A stretch of 64,000 nucleotides of DNA. It comes from Phycisphaerae bacterium. Its GTDB lineage: Bacteria > Planctomycetota > Phycisphaerae > UBA1845. The notes under the pieces are model-generated. The model did not search any database and was not told the DNA's origin. It saw only the letters and a program-made list of their open reading frames with translations. The position numbers and the translations under genes were made by a program. Every line of letters begins with the position of its first letter. The stretch's first letter is position 1. Below are positions 10,503 to 50,696 of this stretch, one piece after another. The stretch lies in assembly GCA_963666835.2 (NCBI GenBank), contig CAXXGO010000001.1, positions 1,568,001 through 1,632,000 of the forward strand, in the 5' to 3' direction.

Positions 10503-10517
10503 ACCTTTCGCTCGAGG

Positions 10518-11063
10518 CTATGGCTTTGGCTCAAACGTAATCCGGCTGACGTTTCTAATCCAGTAGTCCCCGGCCTTCTTCGGGGGGATCAACTTGATGG
10601 GACGCTTGGGAGTCTTGTCGGCCAGCCAAACGCCCTCGCCGGTCTGCAGGGCTACGACGGCGTATTCAAGGTCGTCGCGGGTGCACTCTTTCTGGTAACC
10701 GTCCGAAGCTTCGACGATTACGGTCATAGGGCCGGGCTTGATGCCGGCTTCGGCCGTAAGGTGCGCCAGGGCCGGACCGCGCCAGCTTTCGACTCCGTCC
10801 GGACCGTGGGACCTCAACTGCTTGACTTCGTTGAGGTTCACCATCGGCATGCGGGCCATCTCTGCGAAGGTGAAGGACCTGGGGCTGGCAAGTCCCGAGC
10901 CGGCAAGTTCGAGCGTCCAGGTTATCTGAGGGATCTCCATCATTGACTCCGATTGTCCCGCGGTCGTTGAAGCGCCGCCCATCCGAGGCGTTGCGCACCC
11001 AGATAACACCAAAATGCCGATAGATGCAAATCCGATTGCCGGCGTCAGGCCGAACGACTTCAT
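10518..11063 (-). CDS. Lipoprotein with sulfite-oxidase/MsrP-type molybdopterin-binding domain, no obvious Mo-ligating Cys
   Basis: Lipobox LSGC; WTLELAG...FTFAEMARMP...WRGPALAHL...ASDGY...VALQTGE...PIKLIPP...YWIRNVSRI pattern. Confidence 0.75.
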   Translation of the reverse strand: MKSFGLTPAIGFASIGILVLSGCATPRMGGASTTAGQSESMMEIPQITWTLELAGSGLASPRSFTFAEMARMPMVNLNEVKQLRSHGPDGVESWRGPALAHLTAEAGIKPGPMTVIVEASDGYQKECTRDDLEYAVVALQTGEGVWLADKTPKRPIKLIPPKKAGDYWIRNVSRITFEPKP

Positions 11064-11081
11064 ATCATTCCTCTCGTACGG

Positions 11082-12254
11082 TTACTCGATTTCGAGAATC
11101 CGGAGCAAGTTAACGTAGTCCAGCAGGTCTACGTCTCCGTCGTAGTCCAGGTCCATCATCAGGCAGTGCTGAGTCGGGTGTCCGAAGTCGGGCCGGGCCC
11201 ACGCCGGCGGATCGCATCCCTCGCCGGCGGGGTCGCAGAGCGGCCCGGTGAGGCACTCGGCGAACCTGGCCAGGTCGCTTCCACTATCGACCTCTCCGTC
11301 GTTGTTGCCATCGCCGCAGATAGCCAGGTCCGCCGAGCTCAGAGTGATGAGCTGGTAGTAATCGTAGCCCGTGTCCGGGTTTGTGTATTGTTCGAACAGG
11401 CCTGTTACCGCGCAGAAGTGCCGTCCTTTCTCAATGAAAGGGTGGTAATCTTCCCAAGAGTCCTTGTCGGCGTTCATGTAGTCGGCGGCCCAGCAATCAT
11501 CCCCGTCGGGCGTCTGCAGGTTGTAGTTGTCGTTCTCTTTGCCCAGGTTCCATTCGGTGATCGTGACATTCCGCACAGTTAAACGCATCGCCTCGAGTGG
11601 TTCGGGGTCGTGATTCTCCACGTACCACTCGTCACCCGGGTATTGCAGAGGTGCCGGGATGCGCGTAACCGGGCATAGAATCGGTGGCGGCAGCGGGTTA
11701 TTTCGGCTGACGATCGTGCATGTGGGACTATTGATGGGGTACCATTGCAGAAACGTGCCTCCCCGATGCTCTTCCACCTCAATGTCCGTAATCGTCACCC
11801 AATCGCCTACGCGGATATTGTCGTACAAACCGGGTCCGCCCGTCCAGTCCTTGGCCTGGATGCCGCCCCAGGCATCCGGATGGCTGGGGTCCTGCAGCAT
11901 AATCCGGGGACGGTATCCCGGGAACTTGCCGATCACGATACCCCCGGCGAAATCGATCAGCTCTCCGTCGTATACGCTGACGTCGCCGTCGAACGTGTTG
12001 GATTGGAGCTCGTAGATCGTGAGGGGATCGGCTGAGACGGCATTGGCCGCCGGAGCCGGGGCCCACAGGGCGGCGGCGACGATCAATGCCGCTCCGATGG
12101 ACGTGAGGTTGCCTTTCCTCCCCGACTCACCAAGGAAGGGGGAGGGGAGGTTTGTCTCCGTTTGCCCGCCCGCCCCTCTTTCCCTCCTCGGCAAAGGGGG
12201 AAGAGTCCCGACCGATCTGTATCGAAACGGCAGTAGCAGCTTCTTTCCGCGCAT
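11082..12254 (-). CDS. Secreted OB-fold-like unit protein with C-terminal dockerin/EF-hand-like Ca-binding module
   Basis: RBS GAGGT; LTIYELQSNT...QDP...WGGIQ..GDWV...EE.RG.T unit; C-terminal GDGNNDGEVD...DLDYDGDVDLLDY. Confidence 0.75.
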   Translation of the reverse strand: MRGKKLLLPFRYRSVGTLPPLPRRERGAGGQTETNLPSPFLGESGRKGNLTSIGAALIVAAALWAPAPAANAVSADPLTIYELQSNTFDGDVSVYDGELIDFAGGIVIGKFPGYRPRIMLQDPSHPDAWGGIQAKDWTGGPGLYDNIRVGDWVTITDIEVEEHRGGTFLQWYPINSPTCTIVSRNNPLPPPILCPVTRIPAPLQYPGDEWYVENHDPEPLEAMRLTVRNVTITEWNLGKENDNYNLQTPDGDDCWAADYMNADKDSWEDYHPFIEKGRHFCAVTGLFEQYTNPDTGYDYYQLITLSSADLAICGDGNNDGEVDSGSDLARFAECLTGPLCDPAGEGCDPPAWARPDFGHPTQHCLMMDLDYDGDVDLLDYVNLLRILEIE

Positions 12255-12392
12255 TCTTTCGTTTACCTCGTCAGCCCGCCTGTTGCGGGAGATTATGAAG
12301 ATCTTTCAGGGGTCGATGCCGCAAGCTCAAGTTTCCGCATGCCACTGATGTGGCACGGTTACCGATTCGTGAACTTGGTCAATAGATCCATA

Positions 12393-13292
12393 CTACGCGA
12401 CGCTCGTTTGCCGGCGGGTGTACAAGACAGTTCCCGCCGTCAGCAGCAACAGTAGCATCACGATAGCCCCCCACGCTGACACGGTGGGGACGCCGTCGCC
12501 GTGCTCTGCAATATCCGCCGCCGATGCCGTGCAAAGCTGATAGTAGTCCCAGTCGGTATCCGGGTTCTTGTACTGTTCGAGCATGCCGGTCACGCTGGCG
12601 AAGCTCGCCCCGGTGACGATACGCGAGTCGTATTCGTTGGGGGGCTCGAGGTCGGCATTCATGTAGTCCGCCGCCCAGAGCAGGTCGCTGTCCTGGCTCA
12701 GTTCGTAGTTATCCGCGGCTTTGCCAAGCCCCATTTGCGCGACGGTGACGTCGCCGACGGTCACGCGCATGGCCTCATAGGGTTCAGCGTCGTGATTCTC
12801 CACGAACCAGCCGCCCGTCTCGTCGTCGTAAACCGGGGCGGGGATCTGGCTTGCCGTCAGGGCGATCGGCGCGGGCAGGGGGTTCCCCTGGCTGACGACC
12901 GTGAAACCGGGAGTGTACGGGGGCTGCCAGTGCAGCATGGTGTTACCCCGATACTCCTCCACGAGCATGTTGGTCAGGCTAACCCAATCTCCGATCTCGA
13001 CATTGTTGTAGAGTTCGTCGTTTGTCCAGTCTTTGACCTGAATTCCTCCCCAGCCGGTCGCATTCGCCGGATCCTGCAGGGCGATGCGATACCGGTAACC
13101 GGGGAACTTGCCGACGACGATTCCTCCGACGCAGTCGATAGTCTGCGTGTCGTAAACGCTGGCATCGCCGTCGGTGGTGTTGGACTGAAGCTCATAGATC
13201 GTAAGCGGGTCGGCCGATGCCGGGGCGGCGCATGCGGCGATTCCCGTCAGCCCCAACATCCCCCAGGCGATTGATCTGCAGATTCCGGACAT
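12393..13292 (-). CDS. Secreted single-unit OB-fold-like protein with IPTL-CTERM tail
   Basis: ATG 13292 after GGAGAGGAG; same unit as its neighbours; C-terminus GVPTVSAWGAIVMLLLLLTAGTVLYTRR. Confidence 0.8.
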   Translation of the reverse strand: MSGICRSIAWGMLGLTGIAACAAPASADPLTIYELQSNTTDGDASVYDTQTIDCVGGIVVGKFPGYRYRIALQDPANATGWGGIQVKDWTNDELYNNVEIGDWVSLTNMLVEEYRGNTMLHWQPPYTPGFTVVSQGNPLPAPIALTASQIPAPVYDDETGGWFVENHDAEPYEAMRVTVGDVTVAQMGLGKAADNYELSQDSDLLWAADYMNADLEPPNEYDSRIVTGASFASVTGMLEQYKNPDTDWDYYQLCTASAADIAEHGDGVPTVSAWGAIVMLLLLLTAGTVLYTRRQTSVA

Positions 13293-33662: not shown

Positions 33663-35222
33663 TTACTCCAGCACTTGCCGAACGCAGTCGATTACGGTGC
33701 CGTCGACCCATTTGATTGCGGCCACGATCTTCTCGCCGAGCACCGGGGGGGCGGGCGGTCCGCCGCACAAGGCGTCGACCTCGGTCTTGATCTCCTCGAT
33801 GGATCGGATCGGCAGGCCCGAGCCCTTTACGGACTCGATCAGATCGGTCCGGCGGGGATTGATGGCGATACCGCGTTCTGTGACGATCACGTCGATCAAC
33901 TCGCCCGGTCCACACACGGTCGTCACGCGATCCACGATGACGGGGATCCGGTCGCGCATGGAAGGAATCGGCAGGATTACGCACTTGCCGGCCAGGCAGT
34001 TCTGCCAGCCACCGATGCCGTGCAGCAATCTGCCGTCCGAGTGGGTCACGACGTTGGCATTGAAGTGAACGTCGACTTCGGTGGCTCCCAACACGACGGC
34101 GTCGAGCATTGAGGCGAAGCAGCCCTTGCCGTGGAAGTTGTAGCTGGTGAACGGGCTGGTGTCCTGATGGCAGGGGTTCTCCCGCATGGAGCGTACACCG
34201 TCGAGATCGAAGGTCTGCCCGTCAAGGATGTAGTCGGCCAGACCCTCCTCGAGCATCTCGACCAGGTACTTGTTACTCCCCCCGCGAATGAAACGTGCCT
34301 TGATACCGGCTTCCTTCATCATCTCCTTGAGGTAGATGGCAAAGCCGAGCGACGTTCCCCCGGCACCGGCCTGGAACGAGAATCCATCCTTCATGATTCC
34401 GGAATCGCGTACGAACTGGGCGGTTAGCTCCGAGATCAGAAGGCGATCGGGACTCTTGGTGATCATCGTGGTCCCCGAAACGATTTTCTCCGGGTCCCCC
34501 ACGGAATCCATGACGACAACCTGATCCACGTTGTTGCCCTGGATCTGCCAGGGGATACACGGGAACGGAACAGGGTTGTCGGTGACGACGATTACATGGT
34601 CGGCGTAGATGGAGTCGGCCAGGGCGAACCCGAGCAGACCACACGCGGAAGGACCCGTCACGCCGTTGGCGTTGCCGAAGGCGTCGGCCGTGGGGGCGGC
34701 GATGACGGCGATGTCGATGTGGACTTCGCCGTCCTGAATGGCCTGCCAGCGCCCGCCGTGCGAGCGGAGCACGCCCATCCCGCGCATTCTTCCCGTTGCG
34801 CAGTAGTTGCCGAGCGGGCCGTTCATACTCCCCTCGATATGGTGGATAAGTCCACTTTCGAGGTGGTCGATGATCTCCGCTTGGCAAGGAAACGATGCGC
34901 TGGGGAACCAGCGCAGGTCCTTAACTCCCATCTGCGCGGCCGCCCGGAACACTTCGTTGGCGACTTTGTCGCCGTCGCGGAAATGGTGATGCGACGAGAT
35001 GGTCATTCCGTCGCGCAAACCCGCATTCTTCAGGGCCGTAGCTATGGAATCGACGATCTTGTTGCCATCTGCCGGATAGTCGGCGCAAGTACGAATGGAC
35101 GGGGCGGTTTTGTTCCCGGAAGGGCGGTACTTGCCGACGCCCATGAACGGGGTGGCCGGTCGCCCGTTGATTTCAGTAGGCACCATACGCCCGACGGCGT
35201 TTTCGATGAGTTTGTTAGTCAT
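33663..35222 (-). CDS. citF: Citrate lyase alpha subunit-like CoA/ACP transferase
   Basis: GLRDGMTISSHHHFRDGD, LRSHGGR, SFQAGAGG, GATEVDVHFNANVVT, VTERGIAINP. Confidence 0.93.
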   Translation of the reverse strand: MTNKLIENAVGRMVPTEINGRPATPFMGVGKYRPSGNKTAPSIRTCADYPADGNKIVDSIATALKNAGLRDGMTISSHHHFRDGDKVANEVFRAAAQMGVKDLRWFPSASFPCQAEIIDHLESGLIHHIEGSMNGPLGNYCATGRMRGMGVLRSHGGRWQAIQDGEVHIDIAVIAAPTADAFGNANGVTGPSACGLLGFALADSIYADHVIVVTDNPVPFPCIPWQIQGNNVDQVVVMDSVGDPEKIVSGTTMITKSPDRLLISELTAQFVRDSGIMKDGFSFQAGAGGTSLGFAIYLKEMMKEAGIKARFIRGGSNKYLVEMLEEGLADYILDGQTFDLDGVRSMRENPCHQDTSPFTSYNFHGKGCFASMLDAVVLGATEVDVHFNANVVTHSDGRLLHGIGGWQNCLAGKCVILPIPSMRDRIPVIVDRVTTVCGPGELIDVIVTERGIAINPRRTDLIESVKGSGLPIRSIEEIKTEVDALCGGPPAPPVLGEKIVAAIKWVDGTVIDCVRQVLE

Positions 35223-35300
35223 TGCGTGTTTCCGTGGATAACGAAGCTTCAATCTTCAGCAACCGGCACTTCTCGTATGTGCCGTCGGCCCTTTCTTCGG

Positions 35301-36518
35301 CTAGTTGACTAACTTCATTGCCTTAGCTAGCTCTACCGTGTGTTGGGCGCGCTTTACCACCGGCGGATCGATCATCTTGCTGCCCAGCGATACTGCGGCC
35401 AGGCCCTTCTGCTGGGCTTCCTCGAAGGCGGCCACGATTCGTTGAGCCTTCTCCAACTCCGCCGCTGCCGGCGCGAAGGCCTCGTGGATGACCGCAATCT
35501 GCCGCGGGTGGATGCATCCCTTACCGTCAAAGCCGAGGGACTTGGCCTCCAATACGCTGGCTCGCAGGCCCTCCATATCCGCCACATCGGAATAAACCGT
35601 ATCGATCGGCTGCACGCGCGCCGCCCGCGCCGCGTTGACCACCTGGCAGCGAGCCCAGAAGCTCTCGCGGCCTTCGTCCGTTCGCTGCGTGCCGATGTCG
35701 GCTGTGTAATCTTCCAGGCCTATAGTCAAAGCGCAGACGTTGTCCGACGCAGTGGCGATCTCGTAAGCCCTGATGCACCCGAGAGCGCTTTCCACAATCG
35801 GCATCAAGAGCACCGTGCGGTCGATACCTTTGGCTTTCAGAATGCCCGCGATCTTCTCGTCGACTTGCCGCACCTGGTCGGGGTCTTCGACCTTCGGAAT
35901 CAGGATTACGTGAACATTATGCGGGGCGATGAAGTCGAGATCCTCGAGGCCGCGCCTGCCCTGGTTGATCCGAACCATCCGTTCGGCTCCATGGAAGTTC
36001 AGAGTTCGCAAGGCGTTACGAACCAACAGGCGGGCGGCGTCTTTCTCCGAAGGAGCCACACTGTCCTCCAGGTCGAGGATGACCCCGTCGGGACGGTGAA
36101 GCCCGGCGTTGATCATGAACTTCGATTCGTTGCCCGGCAGATAGAGCCGCGAGCGCCGAAAGCGGTTACGTTCCGTACCATACTCGGTACCGGGGGCGAA
36201 GTCGGGTATGTAGCCGTCCCCGACGTCAACTCCGGCGCGGCGAACGGCCGCTTCGACTCGCGCGGTGATAACAAACGGAAGAGCCCCGGTATCCTCGATC
36301 TCTACCTTGGCATTCTTTACGTTCAAGGCGTCCAGAACATCGCGAACCAACTTGCGAGTGACTTCGCCGTACATAGACTCGACCTTGGTTTTGAGATGCA
36401 GATCGATGCCCCCGGCTTCGGTCAGAGCGATCCGGACCCAGCAATCGGACCGGATATCCGGGCCGTAGCGACCCGCCTCGGCGGCTCCTGACGCGTTACA
36501 GTCTTTGGATGTCGTCAT
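35301..36518 (-). CDS. CitD (ACP-like)-CitE (citryl-CoA lyase family) fusion
   Basis: First ~95 aa CitD-like (EIEDTGALPFVITARVEAAVRRA), then RRSRLYLPGN, ILDLEDSV, GKGCIHPRQ, KMIDPP. Confidence 0.9.
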   Translation of the reverse strand: MTTSKDCNASGAAEAGRYGPDIRSDCWVRIALTEAGGIDLHLKTKVESMYGEVTRKLVRDVLDALNVKNAKVEIEDTGALPFVITARVEAAVRRAGVDVGDGYIPDFAPGTEYGTERNRFRRSRLYLPGNESKFMINAGLHRPDGVILDLEDSVAPSEKDAARLLVRNALRTLNFHGAERMVRINQGRRGLEDLDFIAPHNVHVILIPKVEDPDQVRQVDEKIAGILKAKGIDRTVLLMPIVESALGCIRAYEIATASDNVCALTIGLEDYTADIGTQRTDEGRESFWARCQVVNAARAARVQPIDTVYSDVADMEGLRASVLEAKSLGFDGKGCIHPRQIAVIHEAFAPAAAELEKAQRIVAAFEEAQQKGLAAVSLGSKMIDPPVVKRAQHTVELAKAMKLVN

Positions 36519-36636
36519 TGTCGAAATTCCCGGTGTTCAATAGACAGTCATTAAGCTTGTTTCCCGGCGGGAGCGGCGATCGCCCGGCTACCGGATGATG
36601 ATGCCGCGATAGCCCGCGCGAATGCCGCCCGTCCGG

Positions 36637-37215
36637 CTACTCTATCAGCGTACCGTTCTCCATCATGACCAGCGGGTTGAAGGTCCCGAAATCCGCTTGG
36701 TGGATCAGCACCGTCTCGACCACCTGGGGACGACCGTCGCCCTCCTTCGCATGGCATGCGATGGTGTTGAGGGCTTTGTCCGGTAGACCGACCTCGTACG
36801 CTAAAGCCGTTCCGGAGATGGGGTGCCGCGCACACTTGCCGGAGAGGCTCTTGCGAAAACCCCCGTTCCCGTCCGGTTCGAACTCGAGCAACTTGCCGAC
36901 GTCGTGGAGCAGACCGCCGGCGAGAAGTCGGTCGAAGTCGATCTTATAAGGCATCTCGCGGTAGGCGCTTTCCTGTGCCTTGGCGAGTCCGAGCGCCCCC
37001 TCAGTGACCGCGATGGTGTGTTCGATGAAGTTCACTCCGCGCGTGTTGGTCAGAAGGGTAAACGGCATGGCCTTAAGATCATCGACGCTCTTCCAGCCGC
37101 CGCGCTCGCAGGCCAATACCCAGGCCTGCACCGTTTTGGCACTAAGGTCGGCGTCCTTGATTCGCTGGAGAATGCCTCCGAAGAGACCCTCAATGTCTTT
37201 GGCAGTAATCATCAT
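36637..37215 (-). CDS. HD-domain phosphohydrolase
   Basis: IEHTIAV, GLLHDVGK, RHPISG, IACH, IHQAD. Confidence 0.88.
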   Translation of the reverse strand: MMITAKDIEGLFGGILQRIKDADLSAKTVQAWVLACERGGWKSVDDLKAMPFTLLTNTRGVNFIEHTIAVTEGALGLAKAQESAYREMPYKIDFDRLLAGGLLHDVGKLLEFEPDGNGGFRKSLSGKCARHPISGTALAYEVGLPDKALNTIACHAKEGDGRPQVVETVLIHQADFGTFNPLVMMENGTLIE

Positions 37216-37273
37216 CTTACTCCGGGAGTTCTTTGCTCGTTGGGCGCCGTCGACCGGCGTCGCGCTGTCGGGC

Positions 37274-39259
37274 CTACCCGTTACCTCGATTCATCTCCGC
37301 CAGTTGGTCTCGAATGACTGCTTCGAACCCGCCCTTAACGACCAGTTCCTGAGCGATTTCGCCCAGCGGAGCGAAAGTGTACGTCTTGCCGTCGTATTCA
37401 ATTGCCGCGTTTACGAAATCCACCTTGGCGACTCGGCCGGTCCGAATGGTCGCGCTCTTATCGTCTGCGAATGCCTGCACGAGATCTTCTACCAGCTCCG
37501 GGCACTCTATCACGATATAACCGTTGTTGAAGGCGTTTCGCTTGTACGTCTGAGAATACGAACCGGCGATGACCATCTGCAGTCCGCGGTACTTCAGGGC
37601 GGTCGCGGCCTGTTCGCGCGACGACCCCGAGCCGAAGTTGTAGCCTCCGACCAACAGATCCCCCTCCTTGGCCAGCTCCTGGAACTTCGGGTCATAGTTC
37701 AACATGGCCTTGGAGCCCATTTCCGCCGGGGCAAGGTTGTCCTGATAGGTGAACTCCTTGCCGTAGATGCCGTCGGTGTTCATGTTGTCCTTCGGGACGA
37801 ACAGCAGCTCACCTTCGAGCGTCTTGGGGAACCCATCCAGAATCGTGGTTGCCTTGGATTCGGCTGGTGGTCTGGTCGCCGTACGTACCGTGCTCCCGCG
37901 CTTAAGGGCACTGCGCGATTCGTCCGCACTCATCCCACCCGGGGTCGGATCGGCAATCCTACCGGCGACCGCAGACGCCGCGACAACCGTCGGGCTGGCC
38001 AAGTACACTTGAGAATCCGGGGCGCCCATTCGCCCCTTGAAGTTCCGGTTGGTCGCGGAGATGCCGACCTGCCCACTGTCGAGCACCCCATCTCCCAGCC
38101 CGATGCACGGTCCGCACCCGGGTGGTAAGGCGATGGCCCCGGCGTCCAACAGAGTACCCCATGCTCCGGCTTGCCGGGCCTGCTCTTCAACCTCGCTGGA
38201 GGCGGCGGCAATGTAGAGCTTGACTCCGTCGGCAACACGTTTTCCGGCGATGACCTTGGCGGCGTCTACGAAGTCCTCCAGCCGCCCGTTCACACAACTG
38301 AGCAGGTACGCCTTATCGATCCTGACGTTGCGTTGCTCCATCTCCGGCAGCGGTACGATGGTCTTCACTTCGTTCGGCCCGGCCACGTGAGGAGTGACGG
38401 CCGCGAGGTCGAAGTCCAACTCCTTGGCATAGAAGGAATCGGCATCTGCCTGTGGTGCATCGGCGCTGATTCGTTCAACGATCTCGGCGGTCAGGCGGGG
38501 TTGGGCATCGCCGCGCTTCGCCATTACCTCTGCACGCTGGAGCAGGTAGCGGCGGGTGACGTCATCGAAGGGGAATACTCCCGCGAGGGCGCCCCATTCG
38601 GTACTCATGTTGGCTATGGCGATACGACCTTCCATGCTCAACTTGGCGATGCCGGGTCCGGCGAACTCCAGACAGCAGTTGAGCACTTCGTCGTTGTTGA
38701 AAGTGCCGATCAGCGCGATTACCACATCCTTGCCGCTGACGCCGGCACGAGGTTCACCCGTCAGGTTCACCCGAACGACGTCCGGTACTTGCCACCACGT
38801 CCGGCCTGTGGCCCAGATTGCGGCCGCATCGGTCCGGACCACGGGAGTCCCCAGCGCGGCCATCGCCCCGTATATATTGGAGTGAGAATCCGAGCCCACG
38901 ACGAACGTGCCGGGCAGGGCGAAGCCTTCTTCGATCATGATCTGATGTCCGATCCCACGACCGACCGGATAGAAGGCTACGCCGTTCTTCTTGGCGAACG
39001 CTTCGATCTTGGCATACTTCGCCAGATTCGCCTCGCTTTTGTTCTGGATGTCGTGGTCCAGGGCATACATCGGTTGTTCGGGATGGCACACGCGCTGCGC
39101 GCCCATACTCTCGAATTTGGGAATAACCGCGCCGGTATTGTCATGTGTCATGACGTGGGCGGGGCGGATGGACAGAAAGTCACCGCTACGAACGGTGTGT
39201 CCTTCCGGAAGCCCGACGGCGAAACGCTGGGCGATCTTCTCAACCAGATTGGATCCCAT
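37274..39259 (-). CDS. Single-chain homoaconitase-like (LysF/Lys4-type) aconitase-family enzyme
   Basis: HVMTHDN, GRGIGHQIMIEEG, DSHSNIYG, SCVNGR, GCGPCIGLG, NRNFKGRMG, fused swivel domain GSSREQAA. Confidence 0.85.
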   Translation of the reverse strand: MGSNLVEKIAQRFAVGLPEGHTVRSGDFLSIRPAHVMTHDNTGAVIPKFESMGAQRVCHPEQPMYALDHDIQNKSEANLAKYAKIEAFAKKNGVAFYPVGRGIGHQIMIEEGFALPGTFVVGSDSHSNIYGAMAALGTPVVRTDAAAIWATGRTWWQVPDVVRVNLTGEPRAGVSGKDVVIALIGTFNNDEVLNCCLEFAGPGIAKLSMEGRIAIANMSTEWGALAGVFPFDDVTRRYLLQRAEVMAKRGDAQPRLTAEIVERISADAPQADADSFYAKELDFDLAAVTPHVAGPNEVKTIVPLPEMEQRNVRIDKAYLLSCVNGRLEDFVDAAKVIAGKRVADGVKLYIAAASSEVEEQARQAGAWGTLLDAGAIALPPGCGPCIGLGDGVLDSGQVGISATNRNFKGRMGAPDSQVYLASPTVVAASAVAGRIADPTPGGMSADESRSALKRGSTVRTATRPPAESKATTILDGFPKTLEGELLFVPKDNMNTDGIYGKEFTYQDNLAPAEMGSKAMLNYDPKFQELAKEGDLLVGGYNFGSGSSREQAATALKYRGLQMVIAGSYSQTYKRNAFNNGYIVIECPELVEDLVQAFADDKSATIRTGRVAKVDFVNAAIEYDGKTYTFAPLGEIAQELVVKGGFEAVIRDQLAEMNRGNG

Positions 39260-39262
39260 CTG

Positions 39263-41080
39263 TCAGTCCTTTCCACCGGCTAAAAGCCCGCCGCGCCGAT
39301 AGATGGCCAACTGGGCTTCCGGAAATGCAAGACCTTGAATTCTCTCAGTGCCGGTCGTTCGCGTTACGGTTCCGGACTCGAAATCCACTTCGAGATCCTC
39401 GCCGTTTTCGATACTAGTGCTCAAGGCGTCGGCGCAAAGGACGGCGAGTCCGGCGTTGATGGCGTTACGTTCGTAAATAGCGCCGAACGACTCCGCCACG
39501 ATCACCGAGACGCCGAGGGCTTTGAAGCAGTCGACGGCCTGCTGTCGCGAACTTCCGCACCCGAAGTTCTTTCCTGTCACGATAATGTCACCCGGCTTGA
39601 CCTTCCTAGAGAAATCCTCCCACCCGTCGAGGTTGCCGAAGGCATACTGCTTCATCTCCTCCGGGTCGGTCACGGTCAGGTGCCGGTTGTGGTAGATCAT
39701 ATCTGTATCGATATTGTCCTGCCGGATCACCCACGTCCGACCTTGGACCTTCGTTGGGTGGGCGGAGTCCCCGGCCGCCGAGCGTTTGCCCGGCGCGGCG
39801 CCGGCTGCCGCAGGCTTCTCGAACTGCACGGGTTGGTCGGGGATTTTGTCGGCCGTGGTGATTACCCCGGCTACCGCCGAGGCTGCCGCCGTCTGCGGCG
39901 AGGCAAGGTACACGAGCCCCTTGCCCTGCTTGCCCGGGAAGTTCCGATTGCCCGTGCTGACGGTGGTCTCTCCGGGGCCGTTCTGACCGATTTGCCCCGC
40001 GGCGCATCCCGCGCATCCCGCGTTGCCCAACAAGGCCCCGGCATCTTTGAATACCTTAATCAGCCCTTCATCGAGCAGCCGCCGCCAGACGACATCCGTG
40101 GCCGGGACGATCTTCAGCACTACCCCCGGAGCCACTGTTCGGCCCGTGAGAACGTCCGCCGCCGCGGCGAGGTCCTCGTACCGCCCATTGGTGCATGACC
40201 CGATGAACACCGAGCCCACCTTGGTGCCGGCAGCTTCCGTAACCGGGACGACGTCGTCCGGACGTCCGGGCCGGGCGATCATCGGTCCGACGCCGCCGAT
40301 ATCGACGACAACCTCGTCCGAATACACGGCGTCCGGATCCGCGAAGACCGGAGTGACGTCACGTCCCGCTGCCTTGCGGCAGTAATCGAGGACTTTTTGA
40401 TTGGGGGGGAACAGCATGATGATCCCGCCCATTTCCGTACACATTGACGCCAGCGTGGCGCGCCCGGCCAGATCGAGCTGGTCGACATAGGGGCCATAGA
40501 ACTCCGCGGCCAGTCCGAGCAGTCCGTTAGCGCCGAAATGGCCAACGAGTGCCAGAGTGACATCCTTCGGCGCGGCGCCTTCGGCCGGCATGCCCTTCAG
40601 GGTGACCTTGATGGTCTTGGGGACCTTGAACCAGACCGTCCCATGGGCAAACGCGTGGGCGATGTCCTGATCGCCCATCCCCTGACCAAATGCGCCGATC
40701 GCGCCCAGGATGTTGGCGTGGGAGTCCGTTGAAACGAGGGTGCCGCCCGGGCCCACCAACCCAAGATCGATGGCTAAGTGCGTTCCGATCCCCGCGTCGA
40801 TGTCGTGTACGGTGATTCCGTGCTCCCGGGCGAAGACGCGGCAGAGCTGCTGGTTCTTGGCATAGTTCTGATCCGAACCGCCCGGGTTGCAGTCGAAGGT
40901 GAAGAAGGTTTGCGCCGGTTCGGCCACCGGGAGCTCGTTGTCCCGGATGTTCTTGACTACGTTGGCGCCTCCGAAATCGCGGGCGATCCTAGCGTCGATA
41001 GCCAGATCGACCACTTCTCCGGCTTTCGCCGGTTTTGCGGAGTGTTCGGTGATGATCTTCTCGATTAACGTCTGTCCCAT
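39263..41080 (-). CDS. Fused large+small LeuC/LeuD(HacAB)-like hydro-lyase
   Basis: DSHANILGA, GSCTNGR, GCAGC, NRNFPGKQG, linker, DNIDTDMI, NFGCGSSRQQA. Confidence 0.88.
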   Translation of the reverse strand: MGQTLIEKIITEHSAKPAKAGEVVDLAIDARIARDFGGANVVKNIRDNELPVAEPAQTFFTFDCNPGGSDQNYAKNQQLCRVFAREHGITVHDIDAGIGTHLAIDLGLVGPGGTLVSTDSHANILGAIGAFGQGMGDQDIAHAFAHGTVWFKVPKTIKVTLKGMPAEGAAPKDVTLALVGHFGANGLLGLAAEFYGPYVDQLDLAGRATLASMCTEMGGIIMLFPPNQKVLDYCRKAAGRDVTPVFADPDAVYSDEVVVDIGGVGPMIARPGRPDDVVPVTEAAGTKVGSVFIGSCTNGRYEDLAAAADVLTGRTVAPGVVLKIVPATDVVWRRLLDEGLIKVFKDAGALLGNAGCAGCAAGQIGQNGPGETTVSTGNRNFPGKQGKGLVYLASPQTAAASAVAGVITTADKIPDQPVQFEKPAAAGAAPGKRSAAGDSAHPTKVQGRTWVIRQDNIDTDMIYHNRHLTVTDPEEMKQYAFGNLDGWEDFSRKVKPGDIIVTGKNFGCGSSRQQAVDCFKALGVSVIVAESFGAIYERNAINAGLAVLCADALSTSIENGEDLEVDFESGTVTRTTGTERIQGLAFPEAQLAIYRRGGLLAGGKD

Positions 41081-41177
41081 GATGTTGCCTCGCTTGGCTG
41101 GACGGCCTTTCGATCCGTCAAGTCGTGGACGGGTGGTGTATTACCCGACGCCGACCACGGTTTGTTCCTTCTTTCGC

Positions 41178-42359
41178 TCAGAGCTTCGCGATGATTGCGT
41201 CGATCATCTGCGTCGTTGTCGCGGCCCCCTGGTCGAGCACTTCCTGGCAGCCGGTAAGCCGCATCATGTCGTAAGTGCGGGTCTTGCCTTCCGCGATGAC
41301 CGCCGCCGTTGCTTTGCGGATTCGGTCGGCCGTCTCCGTTTCGTTGATGTGGTCCAGCATCATGCAGGCCGATAGGACCATGGCGATCGGGTTGACGATC
41401 GGAGGGTCGAGGTTCTCATATTTCGGGGCGGAGCCGTGGGTCGGCTCGAACACGGCAACTTCCTTGCCGATGTTGGCGCTGCAGGCGAAACCGAGTCCGC
41501 CGACCAGTCCGGCGAACCCGTCGGAGACGATGTCTCCGAACATGTTGCCACTGACCAGGACTCCATAGTCCTCCGGGTTCTTGGTCAGCCACATCATCTG
41601 GGCGTCGATGTTCGTTTCCCAAAGGGCGATTCCCGGATAGTCCTGTGCGGCGAGTTTGGCCTCAGCGCGCATCATGCCGGAAGTCTCGCGGATGACGTTG
41701 GGCTTCTCGCAGACGGTTACGGACTTGTAGCCGAACTTCTTGGCGTAGGCGAAGGCCTCGCGCACGATTCGACGGCAGGCCTTGCGGGTGAAGATCCGCG
41801 TCGATATCGCGAGATCCTCACTGGGGCAGTCCTTGAACCTGGCCATCCTCGGGTGCGTCTCCAGGGCGCTGCGGACGTTTGCAGGCGGGTTGGTCCATTC
41901 GACCCCGCCGTAGAGTCCCTCAGTGTTCTGCCGGAAGATCACGGCGTCGACCTTGGGCTCCACAAACCCGTCACCGTCGCGCCGAATGAAGTTCAGCGGG
42001 TTTCCGGGGAATGACTGGCACGGGCGGATGCTTATATCCAGGTCGAAGTGCTGCCGCAGGCCGACGATCGGACTGCTGTAAACAAAACCCTTGTCCCTCA
42101 GTTTCGGCGAAAGCTCTGCGGCGGCTTGGTCCTTCGGCTTGGACGTGATCGCCCCGAACAGGCCAATCTTGTGCTCTTCCAGGAGCTTGATCGTCCGCTC
42201 GGGCAGGGCGTTTCCTTCGTTGATCCAGAACTCCCATCCGATGTCCGCGTGAACGTAATCCGCTTCGAAGCCGGCGGTCTCCAAGACCTGAATGGTCCCC
42301 GGCAGAACCACCTTCCCGATGCCGTCGCCCGGCATGCTCACAATCGTCCTTTTTGCCAC
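41178..42359 (-). CDS. Isocitrate/isopropylmalate/homoisocitrate dehydrogenase family protein
   Basis: PGDGIG, RQNTEGLY, KPNV, NMFGDIVSD, FEPTHGSAPK, NPIAMVLS. Confidence 0.92.
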   Translation of the reverse strand: MAKRTIVSMPGDGIGKVVLPGTIQVLETAGFEADYVHADIGWEFWINEGNALPERTIKLLEEHKIGLFGAITSKPKDQAAAELSPKLRDKGFVYSSPIVGLRQHFDLDISIRPCQSFPGNPLNFIRRDGDGFVEPKVDAVIFRQNTEGLYGGVEWTNPPANVRSALETHPRMARFKDCPSEDLAISTRIFTRKACRRIVREAFAYAKKFGYKSVTVCEKPNVIRETSGMMRAEAKLAAQDYPGIALWETNIDAQMMWLTKNPEDYGVLVSGNMFGDIVSDGFAGLVGGLGFACSANIGKEVAVFEPTHGSAPKYENLDPPIVNPIAMVLSACMMLDHINETETADRIRKATAAVIAEGKTRTYDMMRLTGCQEVLDQGAATTTQMIDAIIAKL

Positions 42360-44994: not shown

Positions 44995-45093
44995 TTTGAT
45001 ATACCGGCGTTCGGTGCGCGATGATACGCGCGCCGGGTTTAACGATGAAAACCCGTCGGGTTTTGAGTGTTTTCGAAAGAGGAGACAGGCGAT

Positions 45094-46728
45094 ATGGCGG
45101 TCAAGCAGTTGGCCTACGAACAGGAGGCGCGGCAGGCCCTGTGGAGCGGGGTCGAGAAGTTGGCCAGTGCGGTCAAATCGACGCTCGGTCCTCGCGGCCG
45201 GAATGCTGTCATCGACAAGGGGTGGGGCGGTCCGACCGTTACGAAGGACGGCGTTACGGTGGCCGAGGAAGTCGATCTCGAAGACAAGTACGAGAATATG
45301 GGGGCTCAGCTTGTCAAAGAGGCCGCGAGCAAGACGAGTGAAGTGGCCGGTGACGGCACCACCACGGCGACCGTCCTGGCGGAAGCGATTTTTCGGCAGG
45401 GGCTCAAGAACGTAGCGGCGGGGGCCAGCGGAAACGCGATCAACCGGGGGATTGTGAAGGCCGTCGATGCCGTTATTGAGGCGGTCAAGGGGATGTCCCG
45501 TCCGGTACGGGTCAACAAACGCGAGGACATCGTCAATGTCGCGAAGATCTCGGCCAACAATGACGAGACGATCGGGAAGCTGTTGGCGGATTGCTTCGAC
45601 AAGGTGGGCAAAGACGGCGTAATCACTGTCGAGGAAGGCAAGACGGCCGATACGGTCATCGAGGTCGTGGAAGGGATGCAGTTCGACCGGGGGTTCCTTT
45701 CGCCGCACTTTGTGACGGATCAGGATGCCGTCGAGTGCGCATTGGACAGGCCGCTGATTCTCATTCATGAGGAGAAGATCAGCAGTGTCCCCAAGTTGGT
45801 TCCACTGCTGGAGAAGGTGGCCAAGGCGAAGAAACCGCTGTTGATCATCGCCGAGGACGTTGAAGGCGAGGTTCTGGCGACGTTAGTCGTGAACAAACTC
45901 CGGGGCATCCTGGATGTCTGTGCGGTCAAGGCGCCGGGTTACGGCGATCGCCGCAAGGCTATGCTGGAGGATATTGCGGCGCTGACTGGGGCGACGGCGA
46001 TAATGAAGGACCTCGGCTTGGATCTCGAGAAGGTCTCAATCAAGGATCTCGGGCAGGCCAAGAAGGTACGCATCGACTCGAATAACACGACCATCGTCGA
46101 GGGGGCCGGCTCGACAGCCGCTATCAAAGAGCGGATCACGCAAATCGGAGCGGAGATCGAATCTACAACTTCTGACTACGATCGGGAGAAGCTCGAGGAG
46201 CGTCGGGCCAAGCTGGTCGGCGGTGTCGCCCAGATCAACGTTGGGGCGGCTACCGAAACCGAACTTAAGGAAAAGAAGGCTCGGATCGAGGACGCTTTGC
46301 ACGCTACCCGGGCGGCTATTGAAGAGGGTATCGTCGTCGGTGGCGGAGTTGCCCTGCTGCGGGCGACCGAAGCTCTTGATGGGCTGAAGTTGAAGGGTGA
46401 CGAGCGTACCGGAGCGGATATCGTTCGCGCGGCGCTGGAGGCCCCCTTACGGCAGATCGCGGCGAACGCCGGGCTCAACCCCGGAGTGGTTCTGCACAAA
46501 GTCCGGGCGGGCACCGGGACGTTCGGCTTCAACGCTGAGACCGGCGAGTATACTGACCTGATGAAGGATGGCGTGATCGACCCCACCAAGGTCGTGCGTG
46601 CCGCTCTGGAGAACGGTAGTAGCGTTGCCCGCATTCTGCTCAGTGCGGATGTGTGCATTTCCGAGAAGCCGTCGGATGACGCTGACGCCGAAGCCGGGCC
46701 CGGTATGGGCGACGAAATGGACTACTAG
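45094..46728 (+). CDS. groEL: Chaperonin GroEL (paralog 1)
   Basis: [30 protein letters not shown] 45094 after GAGGAG. Confidence 0.98.
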
Positions 46729-46840
46729 AAGACGGCGTTTCGCTACGCCGGGAGGAGTTGGGCAGAGACTCAACCGAACCAGGAAAGAACGAGGCGGCCG
46801 AGTCGACCTCGATCCAATAATTGACGGAGACAACCCAATC

Positions 46841-47161
46841 ATGGCAACCACAACCTCATGTAAGACGAAGATTAAGTTCCGCCCGATGGATGATCGCGTG
46901 CTGGTGCAGCCCGGCGAAGCCGAGGAGACCACCGTCGGTGGTATCATCCTGCCCGATACCGCCCGGGAAAAGCCGCAGCGCGGAGTGATTGTGGCGATGG
47001 GGCCGGGCAAGCTGCTCGACAGCGGAAAACGCGGCGAGATGTGTGTCAAGCTTGGTGACGAAGTGTTCTACGGGAAGTACTCGGGAACGGACGTCGAATT
47101 CGGCGGCGAGAAGCTCGTTGTGATCCGTGAGAACGATATTCTGGCGATTGTGGACAAGTAA
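46841..47161 (+). CDS. groES: Co-chaperonin GroES
   Basis: RPMDDRVLV...TVGGIILPDTAREKPQRG...KYSGT...ENDILA. Confidence 0.97.
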   Translation: MATTTSCKTKIKFRPMDDRVLVQPGEAEETTVGGIILPDTAREKPQRGVIVAMGPGKLLDSGKRGEMCVKLGDEVFYGKYSGTDVEFGGEKLVVIRENDILAIVDK

Positions 47162-47216
47162 CCAGACAATCCGGCCACGGCGATTGTCGTGCCGAGCATG
47201 AAGATAGGAGTTGGCT

Positions 47217-48827
<1,611 letters not shown>

Positions 48828-48849
48828 GTTTCCTTGGGTAGATTCATTC

Positions 48850-48882
48850 CGGGGGCGGGCGTTGTCGTCCGCCCCCGTTTCT
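48850..48882 (+). terminator. Internal terminator/stabiliser hairpin between groEL and dnaJ
   Basis: CGGGGGCGGGCG-TTGT-CGTCCGCCCCCG followed by TTTCT. Confidence 0.6.
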
Positions 48883-48905
48883 CCAACATGGATCTGTAAA
48901 GAGAG

Positions 48906-50033
48906 ATGGCGGTGGCCGGCGGAAAACGCGATTTCTACGACGTGCTCGGGGTCGCCCGCGACGACGCTCCGGAAGCGATCAAGAAGGCCTATCGCCGCCT
49001 TGCGCATAAGTACCACCCCGATCGGAACACGCAGGATCCGGACGCTGAGAAGAAGTTCAAGGAGGCGGCCGAGGCCTATGAGGTTCTCTCCGATCCGCAG
49101 AAGCGGCAGCGGTACGACCAGTTCGGTCACGCCGGGCTCAGCGGCGCTGGGCTCCACGACTACAGCCACATGGGCGTCGATGACATCTTCTCGATGTTCA
49201 CCGACATCTTCGGGGGTGGCGGCCGCCGCCGACGGCGGGGGGCGGATCTGCAGACGCAGGTTGAACTTACTCTGGCGGAAGTGTCCGCCGGGGCCGAGAA
49301 GACAATCGAGTTCTCCCGCCGAGATTTCTGTGACGTTTGCGGAGGGAGTGGGGCTGCTCCCGGATCCGAAAGGAAGACCTGTCCGACCTGCGGCGGGTAC
49401 GGACAAGTGGAGCAGTCCGGAGGTCTGGGCGGATTGTTCGGAAGGGTAATCACCAATTGTCCGCATTGTGGAGGACGCGGCTCGACCATCGTCACCCCGT
49501 GCAAGACGTGCCGGGGTAATGGCACGGTGGTGAAGGACCGGGTTGTGAACGTGCATATTCCTCCGGGGATTCACGACGGGCAGGCCGTGCGGGTCCGCGG
49601 CGAGGGCGAGCCGGGCGAGGCCGGGACCGAGCGAGGAGATCTCCATTGCTACGTTCGGGTGACTCCTCATCCTTTCCTCGAGCGGAACAATAACGACGTT
49701 CTTTGCCCGATGCCGGTTAGCTTCACTCAGGCCGCTCTCGGAGCCAAGGTGGAAGTCCCCACTCTGGCGGGCAAGGCGGATCTGACGATTCCCGCCGGCA
49801 CGCAACACGGGCAGATGTTCCGGCTGCGCGGGCTCGGACTGCCGGACATGCGCACGCGGCGGACGGGGGACGAGATCGTCCAAGTGTTGGTAGAGGTTCC
49901 GCGGAAGTTGAACCGCAAGCAGGAGGGCATTCTCCGGGAGTTTGCCGAGACGGAAGACAAATCCGTCCTGCCGGAGTCGAGGGGTTTCTTCGATAAACTT
50001 GTGGACTATCTTGGTAGTCTGGGAGAAAAATAG
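48906..50033 (+). CDS. dnaJ: Chaperone DnaJ
   Basis: J-domain HPD motif, four CxxCxGxG repeats. Confidence 0.97.
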   Translation: MAVAGGKRDFYDVLGVARDDAPEAIKKAYRRLAHKYHPDRNTQDPDAEKKFKEAAEAYEVLSDPQKRQRYDQFGHAGLSGAGLHDYSHMGVDDIFSMFTDIFGGGGRRRRRGADLQTQVELTLAEVSAGAEKTIEFSRRDFCDVCGGSGAAPGSERKTCPTCGGYGQVEQSGGLGGLFGRVITNCPHCGGRGSTIVTPCKTCRGNGTVVKDRVVNVHIPPGIHDGQAVRVRGEGEPGEAGTERGDLHCYVRVTPHPFLERNNNDVLCPMPVSFTQAALGAKVEVPTLAGKADLTIPAGTQHGQMFRLRGLGLPDMRTRRTGDEIVQVLVEVPRKLNRKQEGILREFAETEDKSVLPESRGFFDKLVDYLGSLGEK

Positions 50034-50060
50034 GAGTCGGACGGAACCGGCGACGGGATC

Positions 50061-50696
50061 ATGAAAAAGAGGAAAGACAAGAAGACGGCAGCGGGCGATA
50101 AGCCCGAAATCGCTGAGGTCGCAGAGGAAGCCGACCCGACGGGGGCGGATGCGGAGTCTGTGGTCGTGGCGGAAGACACCGTTGAGTCGCTCCGCGAGAA
50201 GGTTGCGGCATTGGAGGATAATCTGCTTCGGGCCCGCGCCGAGGGGCAGAATCTGCAGAAACGCGCTGCCCGCGAGTACGCGGAAGCGATCCGTTTCGCC
50301 AACGCGGAGCTATTACAGTCGATTCTCGGGGTTCTGGATGACTTCGATCGGTCCTTAGCCGCGGCGGACAAGGGCGAGAGCGGTGAGGCCGTGATCGACG
50401 GGGTCCGATTGGTCCACGAGAACCTCATGAAGGCATTGCGGAGTCACGGACTCGAGGAGATCGAAGCCCTGCAGTGTCCGTTTGATCCGCATGTGCATGA
50501 GGCGATGATGCAACAACCCAGTGAGGATCACGCTCCGGGGACGGTTCTCGTCGAGATCGCCAAGGGGTATCGGCTGCGCGAGCGGGTGCTGCGCCCGGCC
50601 CGAGTGGTGGTGTCGAAAGCGGTGGCGGAAGAAGAGCCTTCGACTGCAGGTGAGGCCGCCGAGGATAAGGACGCGTCGGAAGGGGGAGCCCGGTAA
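50061..50696 (+). CDS. grpE: Nucleotide exchange factor GrpE
   Basis: FDPHVHEA, KGYRLRERVLRPARVVV. Confidence 0.95.
   Translation: MKKRKDKKTAAGDKPEIAEVAEEADPTGADAESVVVAEDTVESLREKVAALEDNLLRARAEGQNLQKRAAREYAEAIRFANAELLQSILGVLDDFDRSLAAADKGESGEAVIDGVRLVHENLMKALRSHGLEEIEALQCPFDPHVHEAMMQQPSEDHAPGTVLVEIAKGYRLRERVLRPARVVVSKAVAEEEPSTAGEAAEDKDASEGGAR

Follow-up and report, generated by a model that had tools for sequence, protein, structure and literature searches.

A conserved six-gene module of a Phycisphaerae bacterium as a probable catabolic exit for 2-oxoadipate through homocitrate

A run of six genes in a 64,000-nucleotide stretch of a Phycisphaerae genome (GCA_963666835.2, contig CAXXGO010000001.1, positions 1,568,001 to 1,632,000; the window) is probably a catabolic exit for 2-oxoadipate through homocitrate, fed mostly by lysine, in peptide-fermenting bacteria. 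The genes encode a beta-decarboxylating dehydrogenase, two single-chain hydro-lyases of the aconitase family (ACN2 and HACN), an HD-domain protein, a CitD-CitE fusion and a CitF-type CoA-transferase. The gene content indicates a real, conserved module that lies, by membership, outside citrate lyase, aminoadipate biosynthesis and the methylcitrate cycle. Most likely the module works like the upper aminoadipate pathway in reverse, with a cleavage of the citrate-lyase type.

In the proposed route, lysine would enter through lysine-2-oxoglutarate reductase (LKR) and saccharopine dehydrogenase (SDH), or through lysine 6-aminotransferase, and piperideine-6-carboxylate (P6C) dehydrogenase and an aminotransferase would lead on to 2-oxoadipate. 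The dehydrogenase of the module would use CO2 and NAD(P)H to carboxylate 2-oxoadipate reductively, which would give homoisocitrate. The Lys4-type homoaconitase HACN, whose place is taken by ACN3 in Bacteroidales, would, as its family model suggests, dehydrate homoisocitrate to cis-homoaconitate. ACN2, or PrpD in other lineages, would then add water back at C3; the resulting (S)-homocitrate would be the mirror image of the intermediate in fungi. CitF would then transfer CoA from acetyl-CoA to homocitrate, freeing acetate, and CitE would split homocitryl-CoA into 2-oxoglutarate and regenerated acetyl-CoA. The net reaction would be 2-oxoadipate + CO2 + NAD(P)H to 2-oxoglutarate + acetate. 2-Oxoglutarate could leave through 2-oxoacid:ferredoxin oxidoreductase and succinyl-CoA synthetase. 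The full version of the route, with (S)-homocitrate and a lyase free of its cofactor, is put forward tentatively and falls somewhat short of probable. The same caution applies to the joint proposal of a widespread, CO2-fixing anaerobic lysine catabolism that may combine three new activities: the reductive carboxylation of 2-oxoadipate, a hydro-lyase for (S)-homocitrate that evolved twice, and an (S)-homocitrate lyase free of the prosthetic group, with Arg where its ACP domain would have the serine.

Positions of the open reading frames (ORFs) and the Pfam and NCBIfam labels, assigned with the model cut-offs, agree with the six co-oriented genes described in an earlier, sequence-only reading of this DNA. 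The operon runs from 42359 down to 33663 (Table 1), with intergenic gaps of 97, 3, 58, 118 and 48 nt in the direction of reading and a GC content at third codon positions of 0.74-0.82. For CitF, an ATG at 35222 is the more likely start. A promoter and terminator scan gave nothing above chance. The source genome (G000; genomes are numbered G, loci L and contigs of the source genome C) has 6.0 Mb and is 92.3% complete. Going by record titles, its closest relative is a metagenome-assembled genome of Phycisphaeraceae with 90% identity.

Table 1. Features of the operon in window coordinates, with the functions proposed for them
Feature	Position	Strand
Beta-decarboxylating dehydrogenase, 393 aa, Iso_dh PF00180; proposed homoisocitrate dehydrogenase acting as 2-oxoadipate reductive carboxylase	41178..42359	-
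ACN2 single-chain hydro-lyase, 605 aa, PF00330 + PF00694; proposed cis-homoaconitate to (S)-homocitrate (PrpD slot)	39263..41080	-
HACN, Lys4-type single-chain homoaconitase, 661 aa, Aconitase + Aconitase_C; proposed homoisocitrate to cis-homoaconitate	37274..39259	-
HD-domain metalloprotein, 192 aa, PF01966, YhaM-like fold	36637..37215	-
CitD(ACP)-CitE fusion, 405 aa, PF06857 + PF03328; proposed (S)-homocitryl-CoA lyase	35301..36518	-
Acyl carrier protein (ACP)-like domain within the fusion; Arg23 at the E. coli CitD Ser14 column	36234..36452	-
CitF-type family II CoA/ACP transferase, 529 aa; proposed acetyl-CoA:homocitrate CoA-transferase	33663..35252	-

The dehydrogenase and HACN point to the homocitrate series. 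The dehydrogenase reaches no NCBIfam equivalog cut-off, and its two best models are homoisocitrate dehydrogenases. For residues 1-150, the top four PDB matches likewise belong to homoisocitrate dehydrogenases, and residues 94-102 equal those of the S. pombe enzyme (3ty3) at eight of nine positions. In this substrate-loop motif, Ile replaces the Asn of isocitrate dehydrogenases and Val replaces the Arg of the Thermus enzyme, at positions that presumably govern isocitrate use. The S-P-I core of the motif is retained in all 80 metagenome rows. The protein also carries two insertions relative to the solved homoisocitrate dehydrogenases. HACN scores 744 bits against the homoaconitase model TIGR00139 (cut-off 529.9; 740.5 and 755.8 bits in two relatives), in keeping with the likeness to fungal homoaconitase noted earlier. 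Citrate synthase was found in 32 of the 37 module genomes, so the module stands beside the citrate branch and does not replace it; a role as citrate-synthase replacement was rejected on this count. A separate large aconitase is also kept in most of these genomes. The dehydrogenase motif, the TIGR00139 match and the separate citrate synthase together favor the homocitrate over the citrate series, as had been proposed.

Both hydro-lyases keep three Fe-S cysteines (C296/C356/C359 in ACN2, C322/C382/C385 in HACN) and have the swivel domain fused in one chain (Aconitase + Aconitase_C), as first described. HACN retains the canonical aconitase active-site residues in 12 of 12 rows, and ACN3, a single chain of ~590 aa defined by at least 60% identity to the G032 gene, does so in 14 of 14. 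HACN is present in 14 of the 37 module genomes and ACN3 in 14 others, with no overlap. ACN2 keeps the three Fe-S cysteines and the DSH and SSR motifs, and carries Arg34, Cys64, Thr100, Lys384 and Gln513 in each of 17 rows, among which one gene figures twice. These substitutions sit at pig aconitase Gln72, His101, His147, Arg452 and Glu645. Gln72 and His147 were checked, and the numbers of the other three are assumed. The residues replaced in ACN2 are kept in the other groups of the aconitase family, whose tree was made with FastTree on non-fungal sequences.

The slot of ACN2 is filled by a PrpD-family gene in other loci. In the eight genomes with PrpD in the cluster, ACN2 is not among the aconitase matches. 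Conversely, module-type PrpD is absent from all five ACN2 genomes checked (G000, G001, G013, G017 and G032): there are no PrpD matches in G001, G017 and G032, and only 35% and 25% relatives in G000 and G013. G226, with neither gene in its cluster, encodes a PrpD with 71% identity elsewhere. No genome or locus was seen with both HACN and ACN3, or with both module-type PrpD and ACN2. The PrpD-family gene of the module loci is 23% identical to E. coli PrpD. PrpF was found in none of five genomes tested, and an isomerase of the AcnD/PrpF type was rejected for this reason. Fungal homoaconitases catalyze only the homoaconitate-homoisocitrate step, according to the available part of PMC3556520. HACN and ACN3 would thus fill that step, and PrpD and ACN2 the homocitrate step. 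The separate roles foreseen for the two hydro-lyases are supported by this pattern.

The presence of a second, dedicated hydro-lyase can be explained by stereochemistry. The model that names CitE is citrate (pro-3S)-lyase subunit, and relatives of CitE act on (S)-citramalyl-CoA and (S)-malyl-CoA. Fungal homocitrate synthase produces (R)-homocitrate. If the face of attack of CitE is carried over to 2-oxoglutarate, the product would be (S)-homocitrate, and from the Si/(S) series of both CitE and PrpD we infer that this is the intermediate. PrpD converts (2S,3S)-methylcitrate to 2-methyl-cis-aconitate, toward the acyl-CoA-derived arm (PMC3556520 and PMC5690661, each in part), and enzymes of the aconitase type attack the other arm (PMC5690661, in part). 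An ordinary aconitase could therefore not link (S)-homocitrate and cis-homoaconitate. This would explain why the module always has its own second hydro-lyase, as PrpD or as a rebuilt aconitase; it would also explain the expected chiral substrate, since citrate is not chiral. Within the tentative joint proposal, the (S)-homocitrate hydro-lyase may have evolved twice, once in PrpD form and once as an enzyme of the Fe-S kind whose active site is inverted.

All three types of citrate-lyase subunit are present, encoded by two genes. Only a citrate-lyase-like pair had been recognized at first; the CitE and CitF genes are indeed there, and the CitD domain fused to CitE had been overlooked. This CitD domain is matched by PF06857 at residues 24-95 and by NF009726 (67.9 bits, cut-off 65). 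The CitE part misses the citE equivalog TIGR01588 (281.1 bits, cut-off 443.4), and CitF passes TIGR01584 narrowly (502.3 bits, cut-off 501.45). Identity to the E. coli proteins is 39% for CitF, 39% for CitE and 37% for CitD. In a quick tree, 34 module CitF rows form their own clade apart from E. coli CitF (SH-aLRT 99). When the domain is aligned with CitD of E. coli and with another CitD of canonical type, Arg falls in the column of E. coli Ser14, presumably the attachment site of the prosthetic group. All 38 genome rows have Arg at this column, as do 25 of 26 rows from metagenomes and 119 of the 120 closest database homologues (of the latter, one row was judged by eye). The following residue is mostly Ser; it is Ala or Gly in two of 38 genome rows and seven of 120 database rows, and is thus unlikely to carry the cofactor. 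Loading of the ACP domain by the HD protein or by a phosphopantetheinyl transferase was dropped from consideration because the attachment serine is Arg.

The genes that serve the prosthetic group are missing too. CitG was found in none of the 37 module genomes, and five of 14 controls were positive. CitC and CitX were searched genome-wide in the source genome and in 80 metagenome loci. Genome-wide, the source genome has no match to CitG or CitC and none to CitX over the cut-off, E. coli CitC, CitG and CitX gave zero tblastn matches there, and citC, citG and citX are absent from all 80 metagenome loci. The observation that these three genes are lacking in the operon thus extends to the genome, 92.3% complete, in which none was found elsewhere. 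Isolated CitE and CitF accept CoA esters. With the attachment serine lost, free CoA esters would carry the cycle and CitC, CitG and CitX would not be needed; the lyase probably uses free CoA esters and is primed by cellular acetyl-CoA. Acceptance of CoA esters by the isolated subunits is partly stated in PMC6232273, and the canonical citrate lyase requires CitG, CitX and CitC (PMC10798043, in part). No HMGL-like synthase (PF00682) was matched in the whole source genome, which widens the original remark that a homocitrate or isopropylmalate synthase is missing, and the family is unmatched in eight of the 37 module genomes. The idea that a CitE/CitF step stands in place of the synthase is supported. 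The step had also been called thioester-conserving, which does not hold: CitF would only shuttle CoA between acetate and the tricarboxylate, and the net products would be a 2-oxoacid and free acetate.

The module recurs across phyla. A search for the fusion in GTDB genomes gave 44 loci, of which 36 are of the module type (52-90% identity) and eight, lone CitE relatives, were set aside. CitF follows the fusion in 34 of the 36 genome loci; companions in the same locus are the dehydrogenase (17), HD (16), module aconitases (11) and the PrpD-family gene (8). Metagenome counts come from the 80 best of 594 loci around the dehydrogenase, 31 of the 80 being at least 15 kb long. These 80 loci contain HD in 47, HACN in 26 (one a 36% fragment), CitDE in 26, CitF in 24, PrpD in 14, ACN2 in 11 (one a 42% fragment) and an ACN3-like gene in 10, and PrpD and ACN2 never occur together. 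Module records come from Planctomycetota, Bacteroidota, Acidobacteriota, Fibrobacterota, Krumholzibacteriota, Eisenbacteria, Cloacimonadota, Aminicenantes and Chloroflexota. The genomes are related by kinship, and their co-occurrence counts are not independent. Because the same families cluster across phyla and in the 80 metagenome loci, the gene block is not due to chance. Module-type CitF is rare among 251 sampled Planctomycetota (three genomes, the source genome included; three more have a distant CitF). The fusion family is large: all 8000 candidates scored pass E 1e-60, canonical CitE relatives included. No recurring transporter was found near the module in 132 loci. The commonest neighbor outside the core is a PepD dipeptidase (22 of the 132 loci); no seventh core gene emerged among them, and this candidate was rejected. 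G162 and G226 seemed at first to have CitD-E-F triple fusions, with open frames of 947 aa and 925 aa, respectively, but the genes proved to be separate overlapping ORFs.

Lysine is indicated by gene neighborhood and gene content. In the Bacteroidales genome G032, the order citDE-citF-dehydrogenase-HD-ACN2-ACN3-P6C dehydrogenase-LKR-SDH is found in one run on one strand, downstream of hutU-hutI-ftcD, and the P6C dehydrogenase scores 810 bits (cut-off 730). A long SDH is present in 25 of 37 genomes (E <=1e-60, BLAST-confirmed), and LKR was verified by BLAST beside SDH in 12. Only these 12 were counted, since PF05222 also matches alanine dehydrogenase and transhydrogenase and is unfit for LKR counts. 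The background rate of LKR in Planctomycetota is 22 of 251. Lysine 6-aminotransferase occurs in four of the 12 genomes without SDH (three over the cut-off, one split into two pieces) and is absent from the other 25. It was rejected as the common upstream enzyme, being present in only four of 37, and complements SDH instead. Two further Planctomycetota, G162 and G226, lack LKR and have lysine 6-aminotransferase and P6C dehydrogenase over the cut-off. A lysine-entry enzyme is present in 31 of 39 genomes.

In the source genome, LKR, SDH and P6C dehydrogenase are encoded outside the operon, and LKR resembles human AASS (280 bits) more than yeast Lys1 (65 bits), which places it in the AASS type. 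The genome also has 2-oxoacid:ferredoxin oxidoreductase, SucCD and glutamate dehydrogenase, and gave no match to SucA or YdcJ/HglS. Searches for lysA and leuA, for ilvA and ilvD, for four his genes and for argB and argC all came back empty, gene losses that read as the profile of a peptide feeder. Biosynthesis, which the sequence-only reading had allowed for, is not supported as the likely direction: LysX is over the cut-off in just one of 37 genomes, neither a Lys2-like reductase (EntF as query) nor an AOR-like reductase was found in the source genome, and the genes linked in G032 are catabolic. Leucine biosynthesis and lysine biosynthesis of the LysW type were rejected on the searches for the synthase, lysA/leuA and LysX. 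In G000, G001 and G002, dapB is present and lysA is unmatched, and G000 also has dapA and dapF. The dap genes of G000 would supply diaminopimelate for the wall, and no known route of lysine synthesis goes with them.

Several observations weigh against an exit for lysine-derived 2-oxoadipate. Linkage to lysine catabolism was seen in only one of 36 genome loci and none of 80 metagenome loci. Eight of 39 genomes show no lysine-entry enzyme. Among them are four Acidobacteriota, G027, G035 and G036 with all six genes and G034 with at least four; neither LKR/SDH nor the aminotransferase nor P6C dehydrogenase was found in them, and the two class III aminotransferases scanned belong to PRK05769. The other four are the small assemblies G028, G030 and G031 (2.0-3.4 Mb) and the Chloroflexota genome G012, which has LysX. 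P6C dehydrogenase is over the cut-off in 14 of 37 module genomes, not above the Planctomycetota background of 100 of 251, and is uninformative as an enrichment marker. The saccharopine counts come mostly from Bacteroidota, and the background rate covers Planctomycetota only. For the dehydrogenase, whole-length PDB scores of isocitrate and homoisocitrate dehydrogenases are nearly equal (177.5 vs 175.4 bits), so that its assignment is an argument from the motif. The source genome encodes, besides 2-oxoacid:ferredoxin oxidoreductase, a protein similar to glutaryl-CoA dehydrogenase (2eba, 466 bits), which makes a second and competing 2-oxoadipate exit possible. Its gene stands alone beside a phosphate-uptake operon (C3:169737-171008). 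As a rationalization, the flavoprotein route through glutaryl-CoA would need a respiratory acceptor and the module would serve under fermentation. Finally, a citrate role is conceivable in this genome, which has lost both AcnA and citrate synthase in intact form. A PF00285 search found no intact citrate synthase there; a short C-terminal remnant lies at C6:684539-684799, and acnA is internally deleted (C6:350365-351440). An intact NADP-type isocitrate dehydrogenase is retained outside the operon (C6:561722). The close relative G001 keeps both acnA and citrate synthase. The citrate branch thus seems to be decaying in the source genome.

The gaps in lysine entry leave some room for the same chemistry on another 2-oxo-dicarboxylate (e.g., 2-oxopimelate or a methyl-branched one), on 2-oxoadipate of other origin, or in the scavenging of external homocitrate. 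This is unlikely. It would suit the Acidobacteriota that have the full module and none of the three lysine-entry enzymes tested, the active sites of ACN2 and HD, which are unlike those of characterized enzymes, and the two insertions of the dehydrogenase. On the other hand, the G032 run, the complementary pattern of SDH and aminotransferase, and the fungal-type motifs indicate a C6 2-oxoacid, and the lack of a recurring transporter in the 132 loci also counts against it. A citrate series, in which an ATP-independent citrate lyase would have its own aconitases and dehydrogenase, is quite unlikely; it could serve to ferment citrate, to break down glutamate through the reductive carboxylation of 2-oxoglutarate, or to run the tricarboxylic acid (TCA) cycle in reverse in an unconventional form. 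In its favor, CitF passes the citF equivalog, and the source genome lacks intact AcnA and citrate synthase yet keeps its NADP-type isocitrate dehydrogenase. PrpD dehydrates citrate too (PMC5690661, in part), and a citrate role was proposed for IALB_1146/1147 of Ignavibacterium album (PMC3362086, in part). However, the citE equivalog is missed by 160 bits, the dehydrogenase motif is of the homoisocitrate type with Ile for Asn, and HACN passes the homoaconitase model. Moreover, prochiral citrate needs one ordinary aconitase and not two dedicated hydro-lyases, and in most module genomes citrate synthase is still present, together with a large aconitase that is separate from the module.

The module might also run in the biosynthetic direction, from acetate (via acetyl-CoA) and 2-oxoglutarate through homocitrate and 2-oxoadipate to aminoadipate, for lysine or another product; CitE/CitF would take the place of homocitrate synthase, and HD might be a thioesterase. 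The steps of the module should all be near equilibrium, as judged from citrate lyase and enzymes of the isocitrate dehydrogenase family, and G000, G001 and G002 have dapB and both saccharopine enzymes without a match to lysA or an HMGL-like synthase. Even so, this direction is very unlikely. Beyond the LysX count and the reductases missing from G000, the aldehyde dehydrogenase linked to the module is of the catabolic P6C type, G027 and G032 have lysA and dapB, and several further amino-acid pathways are missing from G000, whose lack of lysA is thus explained by auxotrophy. The catabolic exit for 2-oxoadipate remains the preferred explanation.

The HD protein is the most constant companion of the dehydrogenase in the 36 genome loci and the 80 metagenome loci. 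Its model (pLDDT 92.3) has YhaM (9h3f) as the best fold match (E 4.4e-4, TM 0.66), and fold and language-model neighbors identify it as YhaM-like only. The His of the HD dyad is present here but usually lost: of the genome rows aligned, only two out of 16 have it, and of the metagenome rows 12 out of 46. The proposed route contains no phosphate ester. Homocitrate, unlike citrate, forms a gamma-lactone, which a misplaced CoA transfer would also yield, and the best guess for HD, a doubtful one, is a repair hydrolase for homocitrate lactone or for a dead-end CoA thioester.

The fungal upper alpha-aminoadipate pathway, composed of homocitrate synthase (Lys20/21), aconitase (Aco2/AcoA), homoaconitase (Lys4/LysF) and homoisocitrate dehydrogenase (Lys12), resembles the module in its two hydro-lyases between homocitrate and homoisocitrate, the TIGR00139 homoaconitase and the substrate-loop motif of S. 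pombe. In contrast to it, the module has a CoA-transferase/lyase pair and no homocitrate synthase, its first hydro-lyase is PrpD or ACN2 and not a TCA-type aconitase (acnA is broken in G000), no Lys2 or LysW route follows downstream, and the direction would be catabolic, with (S)- and not (R)-homocitrate. HACN and the dehydrogenase are bacterial proteins, the one with a match to the fungal homoaconitase model and the other with the fungal homoisocitrate-dehydrogenase motif, and may stand close to the proteins from which fungal Lys4 and Lys12 came.

With bacterial citrate lyase (CitCDEFGX, EC 4.1.3.6) the module shares homologues of CitF, CitE and CitD and the logic of transfer followed by cleavage (PMC10798043, in part). 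It differs in the fusion of CitD to CitE, the change from serine to Arg, the absence of CitG, the separate CitF clade, and clustering with a dehydrogenase and hydro-lyases and not with a citrate transporter. In the 2-methylcitrate cycle (PrpC, PrpD or AcnD/PrpF, AcnB and PrpB), a chiral tricarboxylate of the Si series needs a dedicated first dehydratase, and PrpD is exchangeable with an Fe-S enzyme, as would hold for the module. The module, however, ends in a beta-decarboxylating dehydrogenase, which is unable to oxidize the tertiary alcohol of methylisocitrate, and tblastn with PrpB and PrpC gave no match in the source genome, the only one searched. The upstream enzymes (LKR, SDH, lysine 6-aminotransferase and P6C dehydrogenase) are those of known lysine catabolism. 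Known exits for 2-oxoadipate are 2-oxoadipate dehydrogenase with glutaryl-CoA dehydrogenase, or O2-dependent HglS; unlike these, the proposed exit would be reductive and CO2-fixing, and would use neither O2 nor a high-potential acceptor. ATP citrate lyase and the citryl-CoA synthetase/lyase of the reverse TCA cycle have no PF00285 match in the source genome; the family presumably also covers the lyase domains of these enzymes.

The full-text literature, outside whose scope most subscription journals and supplements lie, yielded no paper that joins citrate lyase, homoaconitase and homoisocitrate dehydrogenase, and no use of "homocitrate lyase", "homocitryl-CoA" or "homocitrate cleavage". Literature listings held no relevant title on anaerobic saccharopine or 2-oxoadipate catabolism. 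In Ignavibacterium album, CitF and a CitE-CitD fusion were read as citrate lyase, possibly for the reverse TCA cycle, and no lysine synthesis was found, according to the available part of PMC3362086. If the proposed function is correct, it would give uncultured Bacteroidales, Planctomycetota, Acidobacteriota and candidate phyla a way out for 2-oxoadipate that consumes NAD(P)H and is independent of oxygen, and hence a means of breaking down lysine. A biosynthetic chain elongation would be run in reverse by trading an irreversible synthase for a lyase. It would also correct an annotation used to suggest that carbon is fixed through the reverse TCA cycle (PMC3362086, in part), and those genomes would have been misread in which these genes were taken to show an unconventional reverse TCA cycle or a citrate lyase that works without ATP.

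Some loci show variant contexts. In the Bacteroidales loci L016, L019, L023 and L437, citDE-citF directly follows a methylmalonyl-CoA epimerase and Na+-translocating decarboxylase operon, a context that would fit 2-oxoglutarate going on to propionate. In three Bacteroidales loci (L195:9138-10172, L197 and L198:9232-10266), an asnA gene for aspartate-ammonia ligase lies between ACN2 and ACN3. L015, from the Chloroflexota genome G012, has CitDE and CitF (9935-12869) without other module genes nearby, within a sugar-utilization region. Its CitF is basal in the CitF clade, and G012 is the only genome with LysX over the cut-off. Distant CitF-like CoA-transferases (31-33% identity) without a CitE or CitD match nearby are found at L250:8690-10309 and L251:6248-7861 (G086 and G052), and form a long separate branch in the CitF tree. 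Elsewhere in the window, a chaperone cluster of groEL, groES, a second groEL, dnaJ and grpE, named from their translations, is located at 45067-50696. An ORF resembling a reverse transcriptase/maturase of the group II intron type, also labeled from its translation, lies at L003:2379-3884 (source genome, C6). A similar sequence recurs at C6:686991 and in L252.

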